A DNA stretch of 64,000 bases. It comes from Candidatus Heimdallarchaeota archaeon (lineage in GTDB: Archaea; Asgardarchaeota; Heimdallarchaeia; Hodarchaeales; Hodarchaeaceae). The translations under genes and the position numbers were made by a program. The stretch is from contig DXJL01000156.1 of NCBI GenBank assembly GCA_019057635.1, forward strand, positions 1 to 64,000, read 5' to 3'. Of this stretch, positions 6,587 through 32,747 are shown in pieces (positions within the stretch are counted from its first letter, which is position 1; every line of letters begins with the position of its first letter). The notes beneath the pieces were generated by a model, which saw only the letters and a list, made by a program, of their open reading frames with translations, did no database searches and had not been told where the DNA came from.

Positions 6587-7702
6587 ATGACTACGATTAA
6601 ACATAATCAGGAATATGAAATTATGGCTTTTCATCAGATCCGTGAAGCAAAGGACTATTCTTTTATTAACGCAAGGATCAAAGCACGTCGAAGCCAGCTC
6701 CTAACAACAAGTGATTATGAGCACATTCTAGATATTTCTTTAGAAGATGGAATTTCTGTTTTACTCGAACATCCCCGCTATCATGATGCACTCCGAGAAA
6801 TGTCTTCTCAGTCGAGTCCACCCTCCCTAATGATAGAAAAATCATTAACTGACTCGCTTCAGGTTGAAATTCATTCCCTAATGAAGAATCTTCCTAATAC
6901 GGATCAAGATTTTTTATCATTCTATTTGAAGAAAAATTCTCTTAAAATAATTGAAGACATTCTTTTTAAATTACATAACTCGGATAGTAAACCTTTAGAT
7001 TTAGCAAATCGCTATATTTCCTCTCCCGAAGAACGTGTAGAACTAATCCAAGCCACACAAGTCACCTCAATTGAAGAGTTAGCAGAAACAGTGACAGAAA
7101 ACTGGTTACGGAAAGCTATTTTATCCTCGCTTGATATATACAATGAAACAAAGGATATTTTAGAAATTGTTTATAGAATAGAGCGCGCGTTCTATGAAGA
7201 ATTGGTGAAAGTAAAAATTCCAAATCTCAAGAGAATGAGCAAAACTATAGCGGAGAAAGTTTTAGGTATAGAAATAGACCTGAATAATATTAACATTGTT
7301 CTTAGACAAAAAGCAATGAAAAAAATTGGTTCTTCAATCGAATCCTTAGTTATACCCCTTCACTACCGTTTAAAAGCGGATTTTGATGATTTACTAAATG
7401 CTTCGTCACTCACAAGCGCATTCTCGATATTAGAATCAACCTATTACGTTGATTTTACCCGAAAGGTTCATAATAGCTACATCATGAAAAAATCGATCGA
7501 AATGTTAGAACAAATACAACAAGAATATTTCTTACGATCGCTAACAAGTATTATGGCTGGTTATCCCTTCCATTTGGGTATTCTACTAGGTTATTATCAC
7601 TATCGGAAACAAGAAGTTGAAAATCTACGTATTATCTTTGAGTCAAAAATTAAAGAGGTAGACATTGAATTTACACGAAATTTACTCATTTACAGTATAT
7701 GA
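6587..7702 (+). CDS. atpC: A/V-type ATP synthase subunit C (d/AC39)
   Basis: DYSFINARIKARRSQLL, EIDLNNI, EVENLRII; lies between subunits I and K. Confidence 0.88.
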   Translation: MTTIKHNQEYEIMAFHQIREAKDYSFINARIKARRSQLLTTSDYEHILDISLEDGISVLLEHPRYHDALREMSSQSSPPSLMIEKSLTDSLQVEIHSLMKNLPNTDQDFLSFYLKKNSLKIIEDILFKLHNSDSKPLDLANRYISSPEERVELIQATQVTSIEELAETVTENWLRKAILSSLDIYNETKDILEIVYRIERAFYEELVKVKIPNLKRMSKTIAEKVLGIEIDLNNINIVLRQKAMKKIGSSIESLVIPLHYRLKADFDDLLNASSLTSAFSILESTYYVDFTRKVHNSYIMKKSIEMLEQIQQEYFLRSLTSIMAGYPFHLGILLGYYHYRKQEVENLRIIFESKIKEVDIEFTRNLLIYSI

Positions 7703-7768
7703 TGCTAGCAAAATGATTCACAGAATCTAATAGAAAATTTAAAATGAATAATCAAAAAGTGAAAAAAC

Positions 7769-8128
7769 ATGAACACAACACAATTAAAACAGATATTTAA
7801 GGTACAATTCGTAGTAGGCACATTAGTATTAGTCTTACTAATCCTTACGATCTCTGTCTCTTCGATTGTTGCCAGTCCAGAATCAGCACAATCAGTTGCT
7901 CAAGTGGATTCCAACTGGGGATTGGGATTAGGAGCAGGTATCGCTATTGGTTTGGCAGGATTAGGAGCAGGACTTGGGCTTGGATCAGCAAGCTCTGCAG
8001 CAATTGGCGCCATTTCAGAAAGGCCAGAAGTATTCGGAAGAACGATCATTTTCATTGCGTTCATAGAAGGAATAGGTGTATTCGGGTTCGTTATAGCATT
8101 CCTACTTTACCTATCATTAGGTGGATAG
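7769..8128 (+). CDS. atpK: A/V-type ATP synthase proteolipid subunit K (c) with an N-terminal hydrophobic extension
   Basis: Gly-rich helix GLAGLGAGLGLG, ERPE loop, ion-binding Glu in FIEGIGVFG. Confidence 0.93.
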   Translation: MNTTQLKQIFKVQFVVGTLVLVLLILTISVSSIVASPESAQSVAQVDSNWGLGLGAGIAIGLAGLGAGLGLGSASSAAIGAISERPEVFGRTIIFIAFIEGIGVFGFVIAFLLYLSLGG

Positions 8129-8302
8129 GTATAACTAGATTGATTACGTAATCTTATTAATCGATCTTTGCCTTTAAATCAGATTAAATCGTTTAATGAA
8201 GGGAAAAGATTTTTCCCTACATAAAACAGTTTACTTCAAAAATTGAAACGCAAAGATCTAAAATTCCCCTATCCTTGTAATAAATCCAGTGTAAAATTAG
8301 TT

Positions 8303-8608
8303 CTACATTTCTTCAGCTTTTCCACTTTCAAGAATCAAGTCACTAAGTGTTTTCTGTTGTTTTGAAGCTAATAGAGCATCTTTTTTTGTTTGATATTGTA
8401 CAACTAGATATATTTCTATAATAGCAATGATAAAGAAAACAAGGATTGTTAAAATTAGAACAAATTCACTTACGGGGGATTCGAAAGATTCTGAAAGTAG
8501 ACTCCCGATGTAAACGCCGAGAATAACCATAATGGGTAAATTGAAAGCCGAAGCAGCAACATTGGCGGGAGTACCTAACTGTCGTCTTCTTCTCTGTTTA
8601 ATTGTCAT
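8303..8608 (-). CDS. Small two-TM membrane protein, possibly AtpZ/AtpI-like
   Basis: Two hydrophobic helices with the pattern P...LG..IG.LL...F..P; last gene of the molybdoenzyme operon. Confidence 0.45.
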   Translation of the reverse strand: MTIKQRRRRQLGTPANVAASAFNLPIMVILGVYIGSLLSESFESPVSEFVLILTILVFFIIAIIEIYLVVQYQTKKDALLASKQQKTLSDLILESGKAEEM

Positions 8609-8613
8609 ACAAA

Positions 8614-9105
8614 TCAGCTAAATTTCTTCTCATTCACTTCAAAAATACTCTCTATGATTTGCTTATACCCTGTACAACGACAAATAATTCCATTTATCAT
8701 CTCTTGAATCTCTGCAAAAGTGAATCGCTGCTGTTGGGTAAGAATATAATAACCCATTATTAGAAATGCGCCTGTGCAAAATCCACATTGAACTGCACCG
8801 TGCTGTATAAAAGCATTTTGCAAATTAATTGCGTGTTCTATCATAGAAATTCCTTCCACTGTGATGACATCGCAGTTCATTGCTTCTTGGGCTAGAACTA
8901 AACATGATTTAACTGGTTTATCGTCAAGAAGAACTGTACAAATGCCACAATCTCCAGCCCAACAGGCAGCTTTGACTGATTTCACCTGAAACTGATTTCG
9001 AAGCACATCTAATAATGTCTCATTGGAGGTGATATTCGTAAGTCGTTTCTGGCCATTCAATGTGAGAGAAAGTGTTTTCATTCCTAGAGTCTCCTCTTTA
9101 ATCAT
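8614..9105 (-). CDS. Xanthine dehydrogenase family 2Fe-2S small subunit (CoxS/XdhC-like)
   Basis: CWAGDCGICTV, QCGFCT, CRCTGY. Confidence 0.93.
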   Translation of the reverse strand: MIKEETLGMKTLSLTLNGQKRLTNITSNETLLDVLRNQFQVKSVKAACWAGDCGICTVLLDDKPVKSCLVLAQEAMNCDVITVEGISMIEHAINLQNAFIQHGAVQCGFCTGAFLIMGYYILTQQQRFTFAEIQEMINGIICRCTGYKQIIESIFEVNEKKFS

Positions 9106-20086: not shown

Positions 20087-21469
20087 TTGTTCGGAGAACC
20101 AAATAAATTCGCTTGGCAAATGGCTCAGAAGACTAATCTGCGCGAGGGAACAGATGGAGTATATAAAATTATTAGAAATCTCTATAGATACCAACAACAA
20201 AAACTAACTAATAAGGAATTTGCAAAATTAGTTGGAATTCCAGTGCCAGTTGTCTCAGCTGTTCGGGGGGAATTGATGAAAGCAAAATTTCTGAAAACGA
20301 AAAATCTTCTTAGCTCAACGGCTATATCGTGGATTGAAAAGGAATTGGGATTGCGATTTGAATTCTCCTTCTTTCAAGAGTTTTCTCCTTCTTCTCCCAC
20401 ACTTACTCCAGAACATTTGTCATTTTTTAATCCAATAATTAAAGCTCTTGAGGGCCGTCCGCCACCTGAATATAAATACGATCAATCAAGAAGCACTACT
20501 GAAACCGTATTAAAACGAGCTATAATAATGGCAAGAAATGGGGATGTAGAAGGAAAGAAAATAGTTTTACTCGGTGATGATGATGGATTATCACTGGCAC
20601 TTGCGCATCTTGATTGTGCTCGTGAAATTTTGGTGATTGATATTGACTCACGAATTTTAAAGTTAATAAATGACTTTACCGAGAGAAATAATTATTCAAC
20701 TTTGATACGTACTCAATTATGGGATATAAGAACCGCTTTTCCAGAAGAGTGGTTGAATCATTTTGATACGTTTGAGATGGATCCACCTTACACTGTTTCA
20801 GGATTTAAACTGTTTGTAACACGTGCTCTTTCATTAATTAATCCTGATTCAAGTTCACATGGGTATATTTCCTTTGGGAATAAGTCACCGTTTGAAAAGT
20901 GGGAGTGTCAAGAACATTTAAATACACATGGACTTGTTATCGAGGAATTTATTCCTAATTTCAACAAGTATATTGGAGCAACAATACTTGGAAGCACATC
21001 TAATCTGTATATTGTTGGCTCAATCCCACAAAAAGTGTGTAGGACAGAGTTAACAGATCAACAACAAGCAATCTATACTTTTGATGAAAAAAAAGTAAAA
21101 GATTTACCAACAGTAGGGTATCAGATAATTGCAGAATTCTATGGAGTGAGTAAAGAAATCTTAACTGATGGTGATCATCTAAAGGGAATCGCCTTACTTG
21201 GATTAGAGCAGAGTCAACTTCATACCGAGGAAGTTTTTTTAAAAGAGTATTCTCCATACGGAGTATCAATCATCTTTATTTTAGTAGAAAGTCATTGTCA
21301 CATCCATACGTGGCCTGAACATAACTATTTATCGTTGGATTTATTCGTATGTGAAGCAAAGGAAAAAGCCGAAACATTCTTTCACTACTTATTAAGAAGT
21401 ATAAATCCAGTCGATTATCATAAATTTCAATTTTATCGGGGACATCCCCCATTATCAGATGAGTCTTAA
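20087..21469 (+). CDS. Fusion: branched-chain polyamine synthase (BpsA/DUF43)-like domain plus pyruvoyl S-adenosylmethionine decarboxylase (SpeD/SpeH) domain
   Basis: DQ..ST.ET...R, GDVEGKKIVLLGDDD and FDTFEMDPPYT (BpsA-like). C-terminal GVS....LVESHCHIHTWPE..YLSLDLFVC (AdoMetDC self-cleavage site). Confidence 0.85.
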   Translation: MFGEPNKFAWQMAQKTNLREGTDGVYKIIRNLYRYQQQKLTNKEFAKLVGIPVPVVSAVRGELMKAKFLKTKNLLSSTAISWIEKELGLRFEFSFFQEFSPSSPTLTPEHLSFFNPIIKALEGRPPPEYKYDQSRSTTETVLKRAIIMARNGDVEGKKIVLLGDDDGLSLALAHLDCAREILVIDIDSRILKLINDFTERNNYSTLIRTQLWDIRTAFPEEWLNHFDTFEMDPPYTVSGFKLFVTRALSLINPDSSSHGYISFGNKSPFEKWECQEHLNTHGLVIEEFIPNFNKYIGATILGSTSNLYIVGSIPQKVCRTELTDQQQAIYTFDEKKVKDLPTVGYQIIAEFYGVSKEILTDGDHLKGIALLGLEQSQLHTEEVFLKEYSPYGVSIIFILVESHCHIHTWPEHNYLSLDLFVCEAKEKAETFFHYLLRSINPVDYHKFQFYRGHPPLSDES

Positions 21470-24323: not shown

Positions 24324-24692
24324 ATGTCTTATCAAGATGATATGAACGCTTTAATCCAAAATGGATATGTGTCAATCGTTACAATTTTAGATCCTAATGG
24401 GGCACCCTATTGGACAAACCAACCCGAATGGCATGTTGACGGCCCTGCTCTTTTATCCTCATGGCAAAACAAAGAGCCAGGTGTTAATATTGCTGGAGTT
24501 CGTTACTCCAGTATGGTTAATGATTGGGAAGTTGGCAACTTTGTAGCCCGAAATGTAGGCGGAGCAGGAATAATTTGCCTAGTACGAGCGCCAAATAATT
24601 ATTATTTTTTGACCTGGACTCCTGGTGATGTTCAGATTCCTTCTATCAATGTCCACGGCGAAGTAGCAAAGATGGCTATTAAATTCCAGTAA
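24324..24692 (+). CDS. Profilin-like protein (eukaryotic signature protein)
   Basis: 122 aa; MSYQ N-terminal helix, TILDPNG..YW and GVNIAGVRY match the profilin pattern (MSWQ.., AI...DG..WA, G..v.G.KY). Confidence 0.8.
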   Translation: MSYQDDMNALIQNGYVSIVTILDPNGAPYWTNQPEWHVDGPALLSSWQNKEPGVNIAGVRYSSMVNDWEVGNFVARNVGGAGIICLVRAPNNYYFLTWTPGDVQIPSINVHGEVAKMAIKFQ

Positions 24693-24854: not shown

Positions 24855-27659
24855 ATGAACGGCCAATGGAAAAATACTTTTGTTTCACTAAGCAACATTA
24901 GAAATAATCTTCTTGCGGTAAGTTCCACCTCAGATAATTCATCATATGACTTTGTAAATCAATATCTCTTACAAATGACAGTTTTATGGACTTTACAGAA
25001 ACATCGGTACTTCAATGATGATGAAAACTATTTTATTACGATGTTCCATTTAATTGAAAAGAATGATCAAAATATTCCTTTCAATACCTACAATGAGTTT
25101 ATAAATTCATTATTAATAGAATTGTCTTCACTGAATGATAATCATCTTAGCATAGATCAACGATTTGGGAGATTACGAGGCTGCAAATCTGCGATATTTA
25201 TCAATATCTCACTTTTACAAAAGAAAGCAAATTTCTCTAACGCAAGATACTACAATTCATTAAAATCGCTTTTGAGTGATAATGAAATTTCCAAGTCACT
25301 GGGAATATTAACAGTTCTTGATCGAATAGATTTTGAAATTAACGGAACATTTTTGGGATCCTTATATGAGTGGTTGATATCATCTAGAACCAAAAGGAAA
25401 GGTGGAGTATATTATACTCCCGTGGAACTAACAGCTTATATTTCGCGCTACTCAGTAAGAACGCTACTAATGGGTCAGTTGGGGGTTAAATCTAGATATT
25501 CACTTGATGCCTGGGTTACTTATTTCGAGTCCCTTGATAGCACTGGTTTATTAAGATTGTATGAAACATTAATTAATTTAACGATACTAGATCCCGCTGT
25601 TGGTACTGGACAATTCCTAGAAAGTGTTATTGACGAATTATTATCAATATATTCTAAGCTAGTCAGAAAATTTAAAGCTTTAAATCTGTCACTACCGCTC
25701 AATCTTATTACCAATCGATCTCATAACACTGGAAACCTAATCGATCTTACAAAGATTACAGATCAGACAGAATTTGAATTCTATCTATTAACACATCTGA
25801 TTTTTCCAAAATCATTATATGGAGTAGATATAGACCCTTTTGTTATTCCTTTCACAAAGACTCGGTTATTTATTTATGCTGCTCAACGAATTAACCATCA
25901 TGAGAAAGATTTTCATTTCATTAATCCATTCCAGTGTAATTTAAAGGTTGGAGATGCACTGTTGATGGCTTGGGAGGATTTCTTCCCAAAAACATTGACT
26001 AAGAAAAATAATTTCTCTCTTATTCTTACAAATCCCCCTTATATTGGAGAAAGTGACAATAAGGAACTATTTAGGAAATATTCGGTTGCTTTTCCTACGT
26101 ATTATGAGGGAAAACTCAACATTTGGTATCTATTTTTTCATTTAGCCCTTAATTTAGTTCAATCTGGAGGTATTGTATCTTTTTTAGTCTCTAATTATTG
26201 GTTGACTGCCTCAGGAGCTTCAAAATTACGTAAAAGAATGCTGGAAGAAACTTTTATATTAGAATTTATTGATTTTAAAGAAAATCGTTTGTTTAAAGGA
26301 GCTCAAGGTATTCATTCTAGTATAATAACCATAAAGAAACTGAAAAAGCACAATTCATCCATAAATTGTGTTTTCTATACAAAGAAAGAACCAGTGAACA
26401 GTCAACTTCTAAATAAAATGTCGGATCAATTGGTATTCCAAATTAACCAGAAAAATCTTACTTTACACAATTGGGATGACTATTTTCATTTTCTTCCTTC
26501 TGATGTCTCTCTCATACTGAATAATATGATTAATAAATCCTCTCCTCTTAAAACCTCCACCTACACAGTAAAAGAAGGCTTGATCACAGGTCTTAACAAG
26601 ATTACTAAACGTCAAATTGAGAAATATGGATACCCTATAACTTGGATAAATCGTGGCATATATGTGTTTGATAGTAAAAATAAAAATGACCAAAAGACTA
26701 TTCAGACATTTACAACTGAGGAAAATGAATATTTACGTCCTTTATACAAAAGTTCATCTATAGTGGATTATTCAACACGAGCTAAGACTGATCAACGCTT
26801 TCTTTATCTAGTAAGGAGAGATGTAGATATTTCCACAATCCCAAATATAAAAAAGCATCTTGAACAATACCAAACAGCTACGCACAATTCGTTAGATCAC
26901 CCTCCATATATTAATCGTCCTCGACAAAAAGACATCTTTCTCTCTCCAAAACTTGTGACTCCTCAAAGAGCACGGAAAACAAACTTTGGATACAGCTTTA
27001 CAGAATGGTTTGCTGCTCAAGATGTATATTTTATTCTCGAAGAGAGAAACTCAATTCAAAAATTGAAAATTCTCCTTATTCTTCTGCAATCGAAGGTATC
27101 TTTCTACTGGTTCTCTTGGATGGGGAAAAAAAAGGGCTCTCAGTTGGAGTTTTTTGGTGAGTCAGTTTCTAACTTTCCCATTCCTAAGAAATTGAATAAA
27201 GGAGATCTTCTAGCGCGGATCGCTGATTATTTAATTTTTCTGAACTCCTTTGAAAACAAGTCAAATGAATATGAACATATAAGGAGGTTTCTAGAAGAAG
27301 GAATCGCTAATGTTGTTGTTTATAAGAGTTATTTTAACGACTTAATTCTCACTTCTCCAAGTCAAAATCAACTTTACGAGGATGTTTGTGATTTTCTAGT
27401 TAAATCCCTCGAAGAAATTGACATAGAACATTTTTTAAAACTCCGACATGCCATTTCTGTCACAGAAAGTGTTACCACGACTAATAAGACAAACTTTATG
27501 GATTTAAAAGAGTCTATCTTATCTACAATTAATGCCTCCTTTCATAAATTAGTTTCTGATCAGAGGATTGAAAAACTGAACAGTGAAGTAAGCACAAGCC
27601 ATATTGTAGAACAGATTGGCAATTATTATGATTCTAAAAACATTAAAGATACAACATAG
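24855..27659 (+). CDS. Eco57I/TaqI-like gamma-class N6-adenine DNA methyltransferase with TRD; no evident nuclease domain
   Basis: GVYYTP, ILDPAVGTGQF, YGVDID, NPPY, TaqI-C-like C-terminal region. Confidence 0.88.
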   Translation: MNGQWKNTFVSLSNIRNNLLAVSSTSDNSSYDFVNQYLLQMTVLWTLQKHRYFNDDENYFITMFHLIEKNDQNIPFNTYNEFINSLLIELSSLNDNHLSIDQRFGRLRGCKSAIFINISLLQKKANFSNARYYNSLKSLLSDNEISKSLGILTVLDRIDFEINGTFLGSLYEWLISSRTKRKGGVYYTPVELTAYISRYSVRTLLMGQLGVKSRYSLDAWVTYFESLDSTGLLRLYETLINLTILDPAVGTGQFLESVIDELLSIYSKLVRKFKALNLSLPLNLITNRSHNTGNLIDLTKITDQTEFEFYLLTHLIFPKSLYGVDIDPFVIPFTKTRLFIYAAQRINHHEKDFHFINPFQCNLKVGDALLMAWEDFFPKTLTKKNNFSLILTNPPYIGESDNKELFRKYSVAFPTYYEGKLNIWYLFFHLALNLVQSGGIVSFLVSNYWLTASGASKLRKRMLEETFILEFIDFKENRLFKGAQGIHSSIITIKKLKKHNSSINCVFYTKKEPVNSQLLNKMSDQLVFQINQKNLTLHNWDDYFHFLPSDVSLILNNMINKSSPLKTSTYTVKEGLITGLNKITKRQIEKYGYPITWINRGIYVFDSKNKNDQKTIQTFTTEENEYLRPLYKSSSIVDYSTRAKTDQRFLYLVRRDVDISTIPNIKKHLEQYQTATHNSLDHPPYINRPRQKDIFLSPKLVTPQRARKTNFGYSFTEWFAAQDVYFILEERNSIQKLKILLILLQSKVSFYWFSWMGKKKGSQLEFFGESVSNFPIPKKLNKGDLLARIADYLIFLNSFENKSNEYEHIRRFLEEGIANVVVYKSYFNDLILTSPSQNQLYEDVCDFLVKSLEEIDIEHFLKLRHAISVTESVTTTNKTNFMDLKESILSTINASFHKLVSDQRIEKLNSEVSTSHIVEQIGNYYDSKNIKDTT

Positions 27660-27714
27660 ATTAAGGAATTTTAAATTGATAATTAATTTATCTTTTTGAG
27701 TTTTAACTTAGTGA

Positions 27715-28653
27715 TCAATTGAAATAGTAATCAAGAGATCGTATTTGATCTTGAGAGATAATATTTTTCATTCGTTTCTTAATTGATTTCACATAAGAAA
27801 CTTGCTCAATTTTTAGGCTATAATTCTGAGCTGTAAGAAATATCCAAACATTCCATAATGCCCGATTTATCCATCCTCGACTTCCTGGTTGCTGTAGTTG
27901 TGTAAAATTCTCAAGGAAAGGTGGTTTATACATATCAAACAGTTCCACAGTAAACCATTTCCTAGTTCTTGATGATTTCCTTACTCTAGGAACTGATCTA
28001 GAACCCTCAGGAGTATAACAATCTCCAATTGCAGCATTTCTCCTCCATCCAATCCAATCTATTGACTCAAGATACTTCCTGAAAGCCAATTGGTGAAAAG
28101 GACTCCCTAGCCCAAATCCATGAAATTTTTGGACAGTTATTGAACGAAATTTGGCTAACCAAGCAGCAACATCGAAAACACTTCCTTTCTCGTTAATTTT
28201 TAGCGGGGAAACCATTCCTCCCAATCCGATATTGGAGACTGAATAATCTACAGTATTAATTTTTGGAAAATGAACGACTGGTAAAATTGGATGATCAATA
28301 CTCTGCATTAGAGTCGACCAATTGCTAAAAGATTTGTACGGATTTCCGATGACATCAAGATTCACAATTAAATCACTGTCGTTTACCCCTATATTCTTAA
28401 GAAAATCAGTATAATTTTCTAACGAAATTGAGATTCCTGAATGATGTGCACTATAGGCACCAGAGTCAATCATTATAGGTCCGTCGAAAGAAAAGTAGTC
28501 ATGCAAACCTTTTGCTTTAATCCTTCGAAAGAACCTTCTAAACTGCCAATATGAAAACAATATTCCAGATTTTTTTTCATGCATGCATTGTCTAATTTCA
28601 TTTGCATGTACCCAAGGAAAAAATCCCTGTACAAAACCTAAGTATAATTTCAA
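27715..28653 (-). CDS. TGT/DpdA-like transglycosylase homolog 1
   Basis: IMIDSGAYS, NLDVI, LPVVH, IGLGGMV, FHGFG, SID: the TGT-barrel motif order. Confidence 0.75.
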   Translation of the reverse strand: MKLYLGFVQGFFPWVHANEIRQCMHEKKSGILFSYWQFRRFFRRIKAKGLHDYFSFDGPIMIDSGAYSAHHSGISISLENYTDFLKNIGVNDSDLIVNLDVIGNPYKSFSNWSTLMQSIDHPILPVVHFPKINTVDYSVSNIGLGGMVSPLKINEKGSVFDVAAWLAKFRSITVQKFHGFGLGSPFHQLAFRKYLESIDWIGWRRNAAIGDCYTPEGSRSVPRVRKSSRTRKWFTVELFDMYKPPFLENFTQLQQPGSRGWINRALWNVWIFLTAQNYSLKIEQVSYVKSIKKRMKNIISQDQIRSLDYYFN

Positions 28654-28769
28654 AAGAAATTTTACCCCTAAATCAATTTAATACATCACAAAAATATGTT
28701 GTTACCATTCGTATAATCATACATAATTTTCTTCTATAATTAGCTGTGTGATAATAAAGGTGTAGATAT

Positions 28770-29243
28770 ATGTCACCATCGAAATACCTCCTCATTATCT
28801 CATGTGGGAAGAAAAAATCCGAGGAACTTAAACACCATGCTTTGAAAGCAGAGGAGGCATATAAAGGACCAATGTTTCAAGTCATAAACAAAGCGAAAAG
28901 GGAAAATAGGTGGGGAGATAATCTGAAACTAGGTATCGTTTCAGCAAAATATGGATTCTTACGAGCAAGTGACTTGATCACCTATTATGATCTTAAAATG
29001 ACAACAGCTATTGCCAAACAACTTCAATCGCAAGTAATTGAGAGCATTCAAAGTTGGCATGATGCTGAATTATTTTCATTAATATATGTGATCATGGGTA
29101 AGGATTATTTAGCAAGTGTGAAAGGATTGGAAAATTACATTAAAACAGATATCAGAATTGAAAATATGGGAGGATTAGGCATTGGACAGCGAAAACTCTT
29201 GGATTTCCTCAATTTATTAGATATTTCTGGTTTAGATTCGTGA
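28770..29243 (+). CDS. DUF6884/YaaA-like protein
   Basis: LIISCGKKK, AEEAYKG.MF, IVSAKYG, YDLKM, GLGIGQR. Confidence 0.72.
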   Translation: MSPSKYLLIISCGKKKSEELKHHALKAEEAYKGPMFQVINKAKRENRWGDNLKLGIVSAKYGFLRASDLITYYDLKMTTAIAKQLQSQVIESIQSWHDAELFSLIYVIMGKDYLASVKGLENYIKTDIRIENMGGLGIGQRKLLDFLNLLDISGLDS

Positions 29244-29255
29244 GGAGAAGAAAAA

Positions 29256-30317
29256 ATGAGCTTTGCTTTAGGAACTCCCATCAATGCTCGAACAAGACCT
29301 TGGAAATATGATTGGATTGTAAAACCTGATTCCTTGATGATCTCTGCTATCGATTTAATGGAAAATTCAAGTTTATTTGAGAAAATAAAGAAAATCGGGA
29401 TTCACGAGTATTTAGAATGGGACGGTCCTCTAGTCTGTGATTCTGGGGCGTTTTCTGCCATTAATCGGAAAAAGAAGATCAATGTTGAAATCGAACAATT
29501 AAAACTCTATTATCGAGAGTTAACAAGACAAGATCCAAATATTATCAAGATCACACTAGATTATCCTGATGAGAACATCCTCTCGAATTATCTAGAATTG
29601 CTTCCATATGAGGTCCAACCAGTCATTCCGTATAACCAATTACAGCTTTTGGAGCAAATTGCAACAGAATCTGGATTACCTGAATGGAGCTTCATTGGAC
29701 GCTTAGTTCCTTTAATGAGAGGAGGTAGTGGATATAAAAGTCGATTGTTTTCTGCTATCAACGATTTTAAAAACAAATTAGATGAATTTTCTTATAATGA
29801 AAAATGTAGAATATGGGCCTTGGGAGTAGGTGCACCTAGTATTCTGATCGAGGTATTAACAGCCGTGGATGGATGTGATTCATCTCGTTGGAGAATTACT
29901 GGCTCTAATATGATTTTACTTCCGCATGGAGGGGAACGGGGAGTTGGTAACAAGACTAAATGGAGGGGAACTCATCGTAGAATTACAGAGGGGGATGAAA
30001 AAATGTTGGTTTTACAGATTTTACAACAAATAGATACTCTCTCAGGAGGATTAGAAACTCTTGATAAATCATTATGGTTTAATAAGAATCCTAAACAACT
30101 TAAAAATCATTTTGAGGTAAATTTACCGAGTATTGGAGAGCTTATAGAAAAATTAAGAAACAATATTCAAACAATGACGGTTTACAACTTAGAATTGCTA
30201 TTAAGAAGTTCTGGAAATCTACGTCTTATATTCAATTACTTTGCTGCGTTGCATTACAAGCTAGAAGAAAGAGATAATACTAATTATGGGAACAATAATC
30301 CAAACTTCATAATCTAG
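29256..30317 (+). CDS. TGT/DpdA-like transglycosylase homolog 2
   Basis: GIHEYLEWDGPLVCDSGAFS (cf. GLHDYFSFDGPIMIDSGAYS in homolog 1), TLDYP, IGRLVP, WALGVG, CDSSRW. Confidence 0.72.
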   Translation: MSFALGTPINARTRPWKYDWIVKPDSLMISAIDLMENSSLFEKIKKIGIHEYLEWDGPLVCDSGAFSAINRKKKINVEIEQLKLYYRELTRQDPNIIKITLDYPDENILSNYLELLPYEVQPVIPYNQLQLLEQIATESGLPEWSFIGRLVPLMRGGSGYKSRLFSAINDFKNKLDEFSYNEKCRIWALGVGAPSILIEVLTAVDGCDSSRWRITGSNMILLPHGGERGVGNKTKWRGTHRRITEGDEKMLVLQILQQIDTLSGGLETLDKSLWFNKNPKQLKNHFEVNLPSIGELIEKLRNNIQTMTVYNLELLLRSSGNLRLIFNYFAALHYKLEERDNTNYGNNNPNFII

Positions 30318-30329
30318 AGAGGCTAATCA

Positions 30330-32747
30330 ATGAATAATCCGATTGAAAACAAAAAAGACTCCAAAATAAGATCAGGTTCCGATAATTTTTTTGAGAATCA
30401 GATTATTTACTGTCCAGAAACAGACAATCTCGATAGTAGCTTATCTCAACTGAAGAACAAAAGTCCTAGATTGATTATTCATGATATTTCTCATAATTTC
30501 TATCCACCAAAAGTACAATTGATTCCTAATAGAAGATTCAAAGGGAAGCACAATTGGAAGTCCACTCTTATCTATCATGACGAAATTTCTCTGGACGAAT
30601 TTTTGAATCAAATAACTAATATTTTCAAGATTTCCCGTTCTGTACTGAAATTGGATGGATTTTTAGCTGTTAAGGTGAATGGTTCGATCAAATCGTTTAT
30701 AAAAAAAATTTTGGATACTATCTTTTATCAAGAAAATTTTATGAACGAGATTATATTAAATTCCCCAATACAAATTCACTATTCCAAGGAAAGTGCATAC
30801 TTTGAGAGGACTGATTATTTCTTATTATATAGCTCTTCAAATCCTCAAAAAATAAATCCTGTGTATGATGAAAAGGAAAGTGGAGGGTACTGGCACTCAT
30901 TTATGTCCAAAGGACAAGGATCTCCGAAAAATTTTCTTATAAATGGTAAGATGGTTCTATTAAATCCCCCTAGTGGAACTCATTGGAAATTGAAACAGGA
31001 GTCCATACTTGAACTTTGTAAGAAAGGACAGATTCGATTGAATAGGAGAGGGAATCCTGAATATTGGGTACCACCTAAAATCGGACAAATAATAGATACG
31101 AATTGGCTCGATCTAGATATCCTTACAATGAGCAAAGGAAAAGATCGAAGTTCATATTATATGCGGCTCTTCCAGGTGTTATTGACATCAAAGCAACTTG
31201 TTGTCATTATAAACCCTAGAGATGTTAAATCTTTAATAGAAGCCTCTAACTTTGATTTAAATTGGATATGTTTGGTTGAGGATAAAAAAACAGTTGATGT
31301 CCTGAAATCTGAACTTATACAGGAAAATCTGAATTATTCAGTAGGGGTTGCCCAGAATTCAAAAGTTTCACATCTCGATTTGTACAAGATACCCTTACTC
31401 GAAGAACAGATAGAGGAATTACCTTCGTACAATGAGAAAATTAGTAAATTAAAACCTGTTTCAATGTATTCAAATGATACTAATAAAGAGATTCAAGCCG
31501 AGAATGAATTAGGTAATATATTAATTCAGGGGGATTGTCTCCATGTTTTACGTTTACTTCAGACAGAATACCATCAGGCTATAAAACTAATTTATATTGA
31601 TCCTCCCTTCTATACTGGAACCAATGAATTGCTATATATCCCCGTTCAAAAAAGAGATAATTCAAATGTTATACAAAACAATAAATCAGACATTTCGATA
31701 AAAACGGTGGCTTATGAAAATGTATTTACGAGTAACACGCCAATAGAAGACTTTAAACTCTGGTTCAGAAAACGTATTATTCTAATGAGGTCGTTATTAC
31801 GTCCAGATGGTTTTATATTTGTAAGATTTGATTATCATTTTGGCCACTATGCGAGGGAAGTTTTGAATGATATTTTTGGCCAGGAAAATTTTGAGATTGA
31901 ATTTATTATCCGTCGTATGAAAAAGAATTTATCAGAAAAGCAGTTAAATCAACAGACCCACTTAATTGTGCATTCTGATTCGTTATTCGTTTATCGTGGG
32001 AGCAAACAGGCAAAGCTTAGGCATGAAATGATAAAAAAGAGGAGCAGAAAGGGCCAAGATGAAGCAGAAATTGAGTATTCCAATGATAATCTGTGGATTG
32101 ACATTGCTGGATACCAAAAAGTAAAAAGAACTTTATATCCAACAGAAAATTCTGAAGTCTTATTAAAACGCATTATTGAAATTAGTACTTCAAAAAGTGA
32201 TATTATTGCTGATTTTTTTGCTGGGTCAGGGACTACACTCGCTATGGCAGAACAACATAAACGGAAATGGTTGGGTATTGACATTGGAATGTTATCCATC
32301 AATGAAATACGGAAAAGATTATTGAAGATAGAGGGAAGGAAACCATTTGCTTTTCATGAATTAATACTGAAACCTAATAACCGTAAATCCGACAAAAATA
32401 GGAAATTTGGTTTTAATATAAACGTCAGCAAACATCCAGTTGCTCAAGGGACTGAAATAGTGTTAACATTAATAAATTTGCTGCACACCCCTCCATTGAG
32501 TAAATTACAACATTATTCATATTTAAACTTGATCGATTATTGGGAAATTGATTGGTATTATAATAAATCAATGGCAAATATAGGATGGTATTCTTATAGG
32601 CAAATAATAAGAAAGGAGGTAGAAAAGACCGTCGCAGTTTCCGCTTGTCATGAATATTCGCATTCTGGGGAATATAACATTTGGATAAATGTCATTGATA
32701 TCTTTGGAAATTCTCATCATAAGACAATCAAAATTGATTTACTATAA
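30330..32747 (+). CDS. Mod-like beta-class DNA methyltransferase with a degenerate N-terminal duplicate MTase domain
   Basis: The C half has LIQGDCL, IYIDPPF, YPT and DFFAGSGTT. The N half repeats the scaffold without the catalytic motifs. The C-terminal IDYW...VIDIFGN domain is present. Confidence 0.85.
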   Translation: MNNPIENKKDSKIRSGSDNFFENQIIYCPETDNLDSSLSQLKNKSPRLIIHDISHNFYPPKVQLIPNRRFKGKHNWKSTLIYHDEISLDEFLNQITNIFKISRSVLKLDGFLAVKVNGSIKSFIKKILDTIFYQENFMNEIILNSPIQIHYSKESAYFERTDYFLLYSSSNPQKINPVYDEKESGGYWHSFMSKGQGSPKNFLINGKMVLLNPPSGTHWKLKQESILELCKKGQIRLNRRGNPEYWVPPKIGQIIDTNWLDLDILTMSKGKDRSSYYMRLFQVLLTSKQLVVIINPRDVKSLIEASNFDLNWICLVEDKKTVDVLKSELIQENLNYSVGVAQNSKVSHLDLYKIPLLEEQIEELPSYNEKISKLKPVSMYSNDTNKEIQAENELGNILIQGDCLHVLRLLQTEYHQAIKLIYIDPPFYTGTNELLYIPVQKRDNSNVIQNNKSDISIKTVAYENVFTSNTPIEDFKLWFRKRIILMRSLLRPDGFIFVRFDYHFGHYAREVLNDIFGQENFEIEFIIRRMKKNLSEKQLNQQTHLIVHSDSLFVYRGSKQAKLRHEMIKKRSRKGQDEAEIEYSNDNLWIDIAGYQKVKRTLYPTENSEVLLKRIIEISTSKSDIIADFFAGSGTTLAMAEQHKRKWLGIDIGMLSINEIRKRLLKIEGRKPFAFHELILKPNNRKSDKNRKFGFNINVSKHPVAQGTEIVLTLINLLHTPPLSKLQHYSYLNLIDYWEIDWYYNKSMANIGWYSYRQIIRKEVEKTVAVSACHEYSHSGEYNIWINVIDIFGNSHHKTIKIDLL

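Follow-up and report, generated by a model that had tools for sequence, protein, structure and literature searches.

A Dpd-like gene cluster inherited across Hodarchaeales: two transglycosylase paralogues, a small DUF6884 protein, and DNA methyltransferases as a candidate DNA-modification module

We analyzed a 64,000-nucleotide stretch of DNA (the window; positions 1 to 64,000 of contig DXJL01000156.1, assembly GCA_019057635.1) from a Candidatus Heimdallarchaeota archaeon of the order Hodarchaeales. The window encodes a five-gene cluster comprising two guanine transglycosylase (TGT)-like proteins, which we call TGT1 and TGT2, a small DUF6884 protein, and two DNA methyltransferases (MTases), MTase-A and MTase-B. 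Our data show that the cluster is inherited vertically throughout the order and is not a mobile island. We give a probability of about 0.5 to the reading that it is an inherited, nuclease-less module for DNA base exchange or modification, similar to the bacterial Dpd systems, coupled to methylation and fed by salvage. The chemistry of bacterial Dpd is outlined in PMC10164549 and PMC5699537: guanine in DNA is swapped for preQ0, and the nitrile of the inserted base is then converted to an amide.

Layout and inheritance of the cluster

The window forms the first half of its contig (128.6 kb), in an assembly of 3.19 Mb that is 91.6% complete. It is archaeal, encoding TFIIB and a branched-chain polyamine synthase, and the closest relatives of its proteins come from metagenome-assembled genomes (MAGs) of Heimdallarchaeota/Hodarchaeales. 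The cluster consists of the following features, with predicted functions:

MTase-A: 24855-27659, + strand, 934 aa; gamma-class N6-adenine DNA methyltransferase
TGT1: 27715-28653, - strand, 312 aa; DpdA-like guanine transglycosylase paralogue
Spacer TGT1/DUF6884: 28654-28769, no strand, 116 bp; lies between TGT1 and the divergently oriented DUF6884-TGT2-MTase-B string
DUF6884 protein: 28770-29243, + strand, 157 aa; small member of the DpdC/YaaA kind
TGT2: 29256-30317, + strand, 353 aa; second TGT/DpdA-like transglycosylase, anciently diverged
MTase-B: 30330-32747, + strand, 805 aa; beta-class DNA methyltransferase

The gaps from MTase-A through MTase-B measure 55, 116, 12, and 12 bp, and the positions, orientations, and 12-bp gaps agree with an earlier note made from the letters of this DNA alone. 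Divergent promoters are presumed to lie in the 116-bp spacer; a promoter and terminator scan with a bacterial consensus, which is unsuited to an archaeal host, gave nothing above shuffled expectation. None of the 16 open reading frames (ORFs) scanned between 20087 and 37267 encodes a helicase or nuclease, and hence no dpdD-K restriction genes are adjacent. The DpdB/DndB-like ATPase model PF14072 has no match in the window's own genome and none among the scanned neighbors. With no such ATPase and no adjacent nuclease, the layout is indeed unlike dpdABC, as had been proposed. The GC content of the cluster is slightly below that of the surrounding window.

TGT2 was found (E <= 1e-88) in 23 of the 24 Hodarchaeales genomes: the window's own, 20 of the 21 others in the same GTDB genus, and both genomes of the sister family within the order. 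The single genome without a match is 1.4 Mb in size and 71% complete. The DUF6884 gene is present in 22/24 and TGT1 in 19/24, with three of the TGT1 misses being contig ends beside the cluster, and all three genes are always single copy. For synteny we fetched 20 related loci. The DUF6884 gene adjoins TGT2 in every one (20/20), and TGT1 lies within 15; of the other loci, three are cut off by the end of the contig, and in two TGT1 is found ~12 kb upstream on that contig. Recurrence in 20/20 related loci places this arrangement far beyond chance.

The cluster is flanked by core genes in constant order, encoding profilin, UPF0047, a 151-aa ORF, TFB, and an HflX-type GTPase. Identity across loci is 72-98% for TFB, 55-96% for TGT2, 55-90% for the DUF6884 protein, 47-89% for TGT1, and 40-94% for MTase-B, with the cluster proteins dropping in step with the flanks. 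Ratios of nonsynonymous to synonymous substitution (dN/dS) against the nearest species are 0.10 for TGT2, the most constrained gene of the cluster, 0.17 for TGT1, 0.19 for DUF6884, and 0.25-0.26 for the MTases (MTase-A, 0.25), with TFB at 0.07.

These data contradict the description of the cluster as an island in the earlier note: its genes are single copy and syntenic, occur in 19-23 of 24 genomes among housekeeping flanks, and diverge as those flanks do. A mobile anti-virus defense island, in the form of a compact Dpd-like restriction-modification system, would account for PADLOC matches of the MTases, to DpdC, and to the candidate PDC-M57A, and for variable extras (Sir2, a second MTase) that resemble defense-island turnover. 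It would also be in keeping with TGT-like paralogues of a sister Heimdall family that lie beside nucleases, STAND NTPases, GmrSD, and a transposase, but those paralogues belong to another clade. Against it, the cluster sits at one site between the same core genes in 20/20 loci, its identity drops in parallel with that of the flanks, the borders showed no nuclease, integrase, or tRNA gene, and GC content is only slightly under that of the window. Synteny largely refutes this explanation, which we regard as highly improbable.

Two ORFs upstream of the cluster are worth recording. Directly upstream of MTase-A, a 122-aa ORF (24324-24692, + strand) is an Asgard profilin (PDB 6yrr 'Profilin', E 6.8e-36) with no Pfam match at E <= 0.01 and 66-98% identity across related loci. 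A 460-aa ORF (20087-21469, + strand) fuses a branched-chain polyamine synthase BpsA C-terminal domain with an S-adenosylmethionine decarboxylase domain.

The transglycosylase-like proteins and their DUF6884 partner

Sequence searches tie both proteins only loosely to TGT models: TGT1 matches phrog_887 (5.8e-18) and TIGR00432 (2.3e-7; 29.6 bits against a cut-off of 350), and TGT2 matches PF01702 (0.0083) and TIGR00432 (19 bits, cut-off 350). Against TIGR00449 the two score 16.9 and 17.9 bits, respectively (cut-off 47.6). At E <= 0.01, TGT1 matched no Pfam family and TGT2 none but PF01702, in a Pfam copy whose inclusion of the DpdA model PF23859 is unconfirmed; among Atlas neighbors, PF23859 is carried by 29% and 81% of members. 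TGT1 and TGT2 are 21% identical to one another (E 8e-12), and their family profiles align with an hhalign probability of 97.7%. We used family alignments of 37 TGT1-family and 40 TGT2-family sequences to generate AlphaFold2 models, which have pLDDT scores of 90.7 (TGT1) and 87.4 (TGT2). The top Foldseek match of the TGT1 model is Pyrococcus horikoshii arcTGT (1iq8, E 6e-10, TMq 0.68). For the TGT2 model, VIA-align gave arcTGT 1j2b (Z 20.4, rmsd 3.6 over 267 residues), bacterial and human TGT (Z of about 18), and the DNA preQ0 insertase DpdA (7ui4, Z 17.8). We consider it settled by these models that both proteins have the TGT TIM-barrel fold; in the same models, the fold match does not separate TGT subfamilies.

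Sequence motifs suggest that both proteins are enzymes. TGT1 contains D63-S-G, L99-D100, GLGGM, HGFGLGSP, and D199-W, and TGT2 contains D62-S-G, L101-D102, GRLVPLMR, LGVGAPS, D205-G-C-D208-S, GGERG, and KWRGT. Three aspartates, in the DSG, LD, and (I/C)D motifs, are invariant: D63/D100/D199 in 37/37 TGT1 rows and D62/D102/D208 in 40/40 TGT2 rows, with the third identified as the nucleophile aspartate ahead of the PTR/RRN segment. HMMER aligns the DSG segment with the DSGG of TGT, and we take the three to be the counterparts of D102, D156, and the nucleophile D280 of Zymomonas mobilis TGT. For DpdA, PMC10164549 names D95, D130, and D256. Because the aspartates are invariant in both families, both copies look catalytically competent, unlike a pair of one catalytic and one non-catalytic subunit. 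The CxCxxC zinc motif is found in 0/37 TGT1-family and 0/40 TGT2-family sequences, and at 312 and 353 aa the proteins are too short to include a PUA domain, so the three aspartates are kept and the zinc site and PUA domain are missing, as first described. The window's genome encodes its arcTGT elsewhere, in a 657-aa frame that scores 507.7 bits.

To place the two families we built two trees, a quick one with 92 rows and a careful one that kept 41 of them (51 left out) and added the ArcS-like protein of the window's genome; the two agree. Both were built without curated bDpdA, DpdA2, DpdA3, and DpdA4 sequences, and the long arcTGT and ArcS branches are uncertain. In the careful tree, the TGT1 family (100/99) is sister, with support of 93/96, to four phage DpdA sequences, from Enterobacter phage EC151, Vibrio phage AL-2, and Microbacterium phage Megan (gp2 and gp3). 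The TGT2 family and one metagenomic protein form a separate clade (99/97), and the arcTGT of the window's genome belongs to a third (98/97), together with TGT-like paralogues from other Heimdall families. Both TGT1 and TGT2 lie outside the arcTGT-containing clade, and a split of 97/91 sets one opposite the other. This placement suggests that TGT1 and TGT2 are old paralogues and that neither is a tRNA TGT. Kinship with DpdA, which had been suggested for both, thus holds for TGT1; TGT2 stands in a clade of its own.

Wider searches gave distant relatives. By tblastn, 71 phage records contain DpdA genes that match TGT1; the matches listed are 24-31% identical to it, and no match covers 80% of the query. 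A scan of viral contigs with the TGT1 alignment gave three weak matches (E 8e-4), and hhalign of the TGT1 and TGT2 families against the single DpdA sequence of Halorubrum tailed virus 29 (HRTV-29) gave no signal. A TGT2-family profile recovered 111 of 1.84 billion representative proteins at E <= 0.001, eight of them at E <= 1e-30. We scanned 58 of the 111, leaving out family members and short fragments, and PF01702 (E <= 0.001) is present in 47 of these 58 distant relatives.

Several other TGT-fold genes came to light in this work. A third family of DpdA-like paralogues of ~300 aa (P0142, P0153, P0165) falls near the TGT1-phage DpdA group in the tree, and the members of P0142 and P0165 carry names from Hodarchaeales and Promethearchaeota MAGs. 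In Microbacterium phage Megan (locus L076), gp2-gp4 are two adjacent DpdA-like genes followed by a QueC-like gene. Another Heimdall family (loci L060, L062, and L065; genomes G007, G005, and G006) encodes TGT-like paralogues of 387-410 aa that belong to a different clade and occur in three settings: with a UvrD helicase, a PD-(D/E)XK nuclease, and an MTase; as a tandem TGT pair with an MTase, a PLD/NgoFVII nuclease, and a STAND NTPase; and with GmrSD and a transposase. Restriction-type contexts for TGT-fold genes therefore exist in the class, and the Hodarchaeales cluster is without those nucleases. We considered the twin TGT-like genes of L062 as orthologues of TGT1 and TGT2 and rejected them, since they are close mutual paralogues in another clade.

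The fold and inheritance of TGT1 and TGT2 also raise an RNA-based explanation, in which the two are guanine transglycosylases of a new kind that place a salvaged 7-deazaguanine in tRNA or rRNA, and the MTases are unrelated or act on RNA. Order-wide, single-copy, syntenic inheritance under purifying selection among core genes is the pattern of housekeeping RNA modification, the fold fits tRNA TGTs as well as DpdA (Z 20.4 vs 17.8), and the lineage depends on salvage (see below) like eukaryotes with a two-subunit TGT, a comparison that published abstracts support. Yet neither protein has a PUA domain or other RNA-binding extension or a zinc subdomain, TGT1 is sister to phage DpdA and outside the arcTGT clade, and the genus already keeps a canonical arcTGT. 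The gene partners are all of DNA type: a protein of the DpdC/YaaA kind and MTases of Eco57I and N6_N4 type. We judge this explanation unlikely, though it is the strongest of the rivals.

The DUF6884 protein exceeds the Pfam cut-offs for PF21818 (44.9 bits, cut-off 30) and for PF03883, YaaA/DUF328 (33.3 bits, cut-off 29.6). It also matches the PADLOC models for candidate PDC-M57A (8.5e-10) and DpdC (1.9e-5), as well as phrog_5935 (6.8e-13); we found no literature under the name PDC-M57. Its motifs are CGKKK (C12...K16), SAKYG (58-62), and YD (73-74), and 12 orthologues and two viral homologues all keep C12...K16, S58-A-x-x-G62, and Y73-D unchanged. The Pfam paper, in its account of the family, gives DUF6884 two motifs, CxxxK and LSAxxG, and a DNA-binding cleft like that of YaaA; a preprint names DUF6884 as the dpdC domain; and two papers, one of them PMC5699537, call DpdC a DUF328 protein. 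We conclude from these matches that the protein is predicted to be a small member of the DpdC/YaaA kind. The earlier claim that the cluster has no dpdC is accordingly not supported, given the two Pfam matches, the partial PADLOC DpdC match, and the name used in the preprint.

Viral relatives of the DUF6884 protein have similar gene neighbors. In HRTV-29, a 'YaaA' gene (gp32) overlaps the start of the DpdA gene (gp33), and in Acinetobacter phage HD01, a DUF6884 homologue ends a queE-queC-queD-folE-dpdA string. Together with the Hodarchaeales arrangement, these cases show that a 'mini-DpdC' is paired with a neighboring DpdA in three settings: cells of archaea, a virus of archaea, and a bacteriophage.

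Precursor supply and methyltransferases

The genus appears, from its gene content, to have switched from synthesis to salvage of the 7-deazaguanine (archaeosine) precursor. QueC (TIGR00364) is over cut-off in 0/22 genus genomes, and at E <= 1e-15 it is found in 0/22 vs 57/61 elsewhere in the class. QueE (TIGR03365, E <= 1e-8) is found in 0/22 vs 53/61. The queuosine-precursor transporter TIGR00697 (YhhQ type) has the reverse distribution, over cut-off in 20/22 genus genomes vs 2/61 elsewhere (82.8 bits in the window's genome, cut-off 50.95), and arcTGT is over cut-off in 21/22 genus genomes. The loss of QueC and QueE, the transporter, and the retained arcTGT lead us to expect a preQ0-type pool open to arcTGT and to DpdA-like enzymes alike. 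The earlier observation that no que genes lie near the cluster thus extends, for QueC and QueE, to the whole genome and genus.

Some candidate genes in this pathway were examined and set aside. Of two 'QueC-like' matches in the window's genome, one (contig C69) is a ThiI-like PP-loop protein and the other (contig C21) covers model positions 2-62 only. QueD-like PTPS genes occur in 22/22 genomes and were not counted as que, as the C69 copy scores 50 bits against a QueD equivalog cut-off of 89. QueT (PF06177) gave no match, and neither did Qng1 (PF10343), whose control was likewise matched nowhere. Two neighborhoods are of separate interest. A gene beside the queuosine-precursor transporter (contig C72; L082, 2068-3531, - strand) partly matches an anti-phage-associated DUF1156 protein (103.6 bits, cut-off 1000), and a TnpB-family RNA-guided endonuclease gene (contig C69; L071, 2979-3932, - strand) lies beside the ThiI-like and PTPS/QueD-like genes.

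The precursor genes and the DUF6884 protein also bear on a repair-based explanation, a lesion module without 7-deazaguanines in which the TGT-like proteins act as glycosylases on damaged or alkylated guanines and the DUF6884 protein binds the abasic or flipped site. It would fit the housekeeping-like inheritance, the missing QueC and QueE of the genus, and statements in the Pfam paper that YfjM, a DUF6884 member from Bacillus subtilis, turned up among proteins interacting with abasic and RNA-base lesions and that YaaA is an oxidative-stress protein that binds DNA. However, the gain of a transporter and retention of arcTGT imply a 7-deazaguanine pool, DUF6884 homologues sit in phage 7-deazaguanine clusters, and the constant MTase partners are left unexplained; our literature search found no TGT-fold repair glycosylase. 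We consider a repair module quite unlikely.

MTase-A matches the Pfam families Eco57I (2.2e-27), N6_Mtase, MmeI_Mtase, and TaqI_C, with motif I (DPAVGTG) at residue 246, NPPY at 393, and a TaqI_C-type specificity domain. PADLOC type IIG/II MTase models match it in the MTase part only, and Pfam and PADLOC scans detected no nuclease domain in it. MTase-B matches N6_N4_Mtase (PF01555, 9.2e-38) and has DPPF at 424 followed by FAGSG at 630, the beta-class order. Its C-terminal half scores 116.3 bits against N6_N4_Mtase and its N-terminal half 24.4 bits, under the 26.7 cut-off; the former is predicted to be an intact N6_N4_Mtase and the latter probably repeats that fold in inactive form. In PADLOC, MTase-B scores best against MTase_III models (1.4e-51), and in sequence it most resembles type III Mod proteins. 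No Res partner is adjacent to it in the window or in the ORF maps of related loci.

The association with MTases recurs, in support of the earlier note, although one of the partners varies. MTase-B lies downstream of TGT2 in 18/20 loci; one other locus ends at a contig end, and one is without MTase-B. MTase-A is found in 8/20 related loci, and in seven it is replaced by a 455-aa beta-class MTase that adjoins TGT1 or lies one small gene off (its class rests on Pfam in one locus and BLASTP to that one elsewhere). A DNA MTase is thus found at or within one small gene of the far side of TGT1 in 15/15 loci that contain TGT1 (two unrelated classes: gamma, 8; beta, 7), and the exchange looks like a non-orthologous swap that preserves the association. 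Other inserts among the 20 loci are a DUF362 gene (9/20), an MFS transporter between TGT2 and MTase-B (8/20), Sir2 (3/20), and EamA (2/20); the DUF362 and MFS genes have no close copy in the window's genome. In the locus without MTase-B (L058, genome G055; 7173-8897, - strand), the TGT2 frame continues into an aspartate/ornithine carbamoyltransferase as one 574-aa ORF, which may reflect gene fusion, rearrangement, or a join made during assembly.

A candidate DNA-modification module and its known counterparts

These data suggest a mechanism in which TGT1 and TGT2, both with their aspartates, would excise guanine from DNA and insert a 7-deazaguanine base. That base would be salvaged, most simply as preQ0, given that QueC and QueE are lost, a YhhQ-type transporter is present, and arcTGT is kept. 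The DUF6884 protein would act on or at the inserted base, and by analogy with DpdC might convert nitrile to amide (dPreQ0 to dADG). The co-oriented MTase-B and the second, interchangeable MTase beside TGT1 would methylate the same DNA. With no nuclease partner, the marks would be expected to protect or label the chromosome and not to arm a classical restriction system. Of the earlier proposal of a compact base-exchange system combined with methylation, the TGT fold, the aspartates, the kinship of TGT1 with DpdA, and the recurrent MTases support the core, whereas the framing as an island falls away and the supposed absence of dpdC is not supported.

Several observations weigh against this reading. 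DNA as the substrate is suggested by gene association and DpdA kinship, and the identity of the base, the role of the DUF6884 protein, the coupling to methylation, and the biological purpose are likewise conjectural. Vertical single-copy inheritance among housekeeping genes is more typical of RNA-modification or repair systems than of DNA-modification systems. Neither TGT1 nor TGT2 attains any Pfam model cut-off, and TGT2 is placed in no known DpdA subfamily, its clade forming a polytomy with that of arcTGT and one of STSV1 type. At half the size of DpdC, the DUF6884 protein aligns with positions 49-115 only of the 312-position DpdC profile, and a profile from the DUF6884 alignment run against PDB sequences found nothing under E 0.36 and did not recover YaaA. 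The coupling to MTase-B has exceptions, as an MFS gene parts TGT2 from it in 8/20 loci. Both sister-family genomes within the order hold the cluster genes plus QueC and/or QueE; salvage is therefore no condition for the cluster, which would be older than the loss of the que genes. Phage DpdA enzymes work without DpdB. Bacterial DpdA needs it, according to PMC10164549, and the window's genome encodes no DpdB-like ATPase.

A fuller proposal, which we find doubtful as a whole, is that the cluster lays down a lineage-wide, inherited double mark on the chromosome. A salvaged 7-deazaguanine would be inserted by the old DpdA pair, possibly as a heteromer or with two specificities, and processed by the mini-DpdC, and methylation would come from a pseudo-dimeric, Mod-like enzyme. 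Its purpose would be housekeeping labeling or protection, not mobile defense. Such a system would be the first of the 7-deazaguanine kind for DNA in cellular archaea, and it would need a micronutrient that other microbes make.

Each part of the cluster belongs to a known kind, and the novelty lies in their combination, their fixation in a whole order, and the dependence on salvage. We found no description in the literature searched of a cellular archaeal or Asgard DpdA cluster, although supplementary tables may list archaeal DpdA homologues, and none of paired old DpdA paralogues with methyltransferases or of a DUF6884-DpdA pairing as such. Of the archaea known so far, Hodarchaeales are some of the nearest to eukaryotes. 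Published accounts, in the portions available to us, describe DNA 7-deazaguanine systems from mobile bacterial islands and viruses only. Here, Dpd-type enzymes are core-chromosomal across an Asgard order, duplicated, joined to DNA methylases, free of a nuclease, and apparently transporter-fed after loss of biosynthesis. If DNA is the target, defense-type chemistry would have settled into a genome mark that is stably passed down in close relatives of eukaryotes, one that would rely on other organisms for its precursor. For the DUF6884 family, a role next to DpdA can now be put to the test, for both cells and viruses.

Among known systems, the cluster shares with bacterial Dpd (DpdA-DpdB-DpdC, as in Salmonella Montevideo; 7ui4) a TGT-fold enzyme without a tRNA-binding domain and a protein of the DpdC/YaaA kind. 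It differs in having no DpdB/DndB-like ATPase and no adjacent dpdD-K, in having two DpdA-like paralogues instead of one, both missing the zinc motif, and in its 157-aa DpdC-like protein with a partial DpdC profile match. Two DNA MTases are attached to it, and its precursor is apparently salvaged, not made. Bacterial Dpd, as PMC5699537 presents it, is a 20-kb mobile island, whereas the Hodarchaeales cluster is vertically inherited.

MTase-B is like the type III Mod proteins (EcoP15I-like) in its best PADLOC matches and in its order of DPPF then FxGxG, and unlike them in having no Res subunit, in its fixed place beside a DpdA-like gene, and in its sub-threshold N-terminal half. The eukaryotic QTRT1/QTRT2 enzyme offers an analogy only: there, too, a lineage unable to synthesize 7-deazaguanines depends on salvage and has a pair of TGT-fold paralogues. 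Our TGT-like models also matched the human QTRT1 structure 7nq4 in the fold searches. QTRT2 is non-catalytic, whereas TGT1 and TGT2 both keep the catalytic aspartates, have no zinc site, have gene partners of DNA type, and are distant in sequence from bacterial and eukaryotic TGTs.

Phage DpdA proteins (Queuovirinae such as EC151 and AL-2, and Megan; subfamilies in PMC10516641) include the sister group of TGT1, at the identity and support given above. They resemble TGT1 in being short, with no DpdB and, as reported in PMC5699537, an incomplete zinc site. Megan further resembles the cluster in having two adjacent DpdA-like genes, but the Megan pair are close paralogues (100/99) and TGT1 and TGT2 lie across the 97/91 split. 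Phage clusters carry folE, queD, queE, and queC beside dpdA, and the Hodarchaeales cluster has none of these; it is cellular, chromosomal, and conserved across an archaeal order.

HRTV-29 gp32-gp33 differs from the cluster in being viral, in its single 243-aa DpdA with no significant profile match to the TGT1 or TGT2 family, and in having no MTases attached. The portions of the HRTV-29 paper (PMC8651126) at hand list the YaaA gene as metabolic with no link drawn to DpdA, and state that the virus has no preQ0 pathway of its own and takes its precursor from outside. Its likeness to the cluster lies in the small YaaA/DUF6884-like gene directly upstream of, and overlapping, the DpdA gene, and in the SC..K, SA..G, and YD motifs common to this YaaA-like gene and the Hodarchaeales DUF6884 protein.

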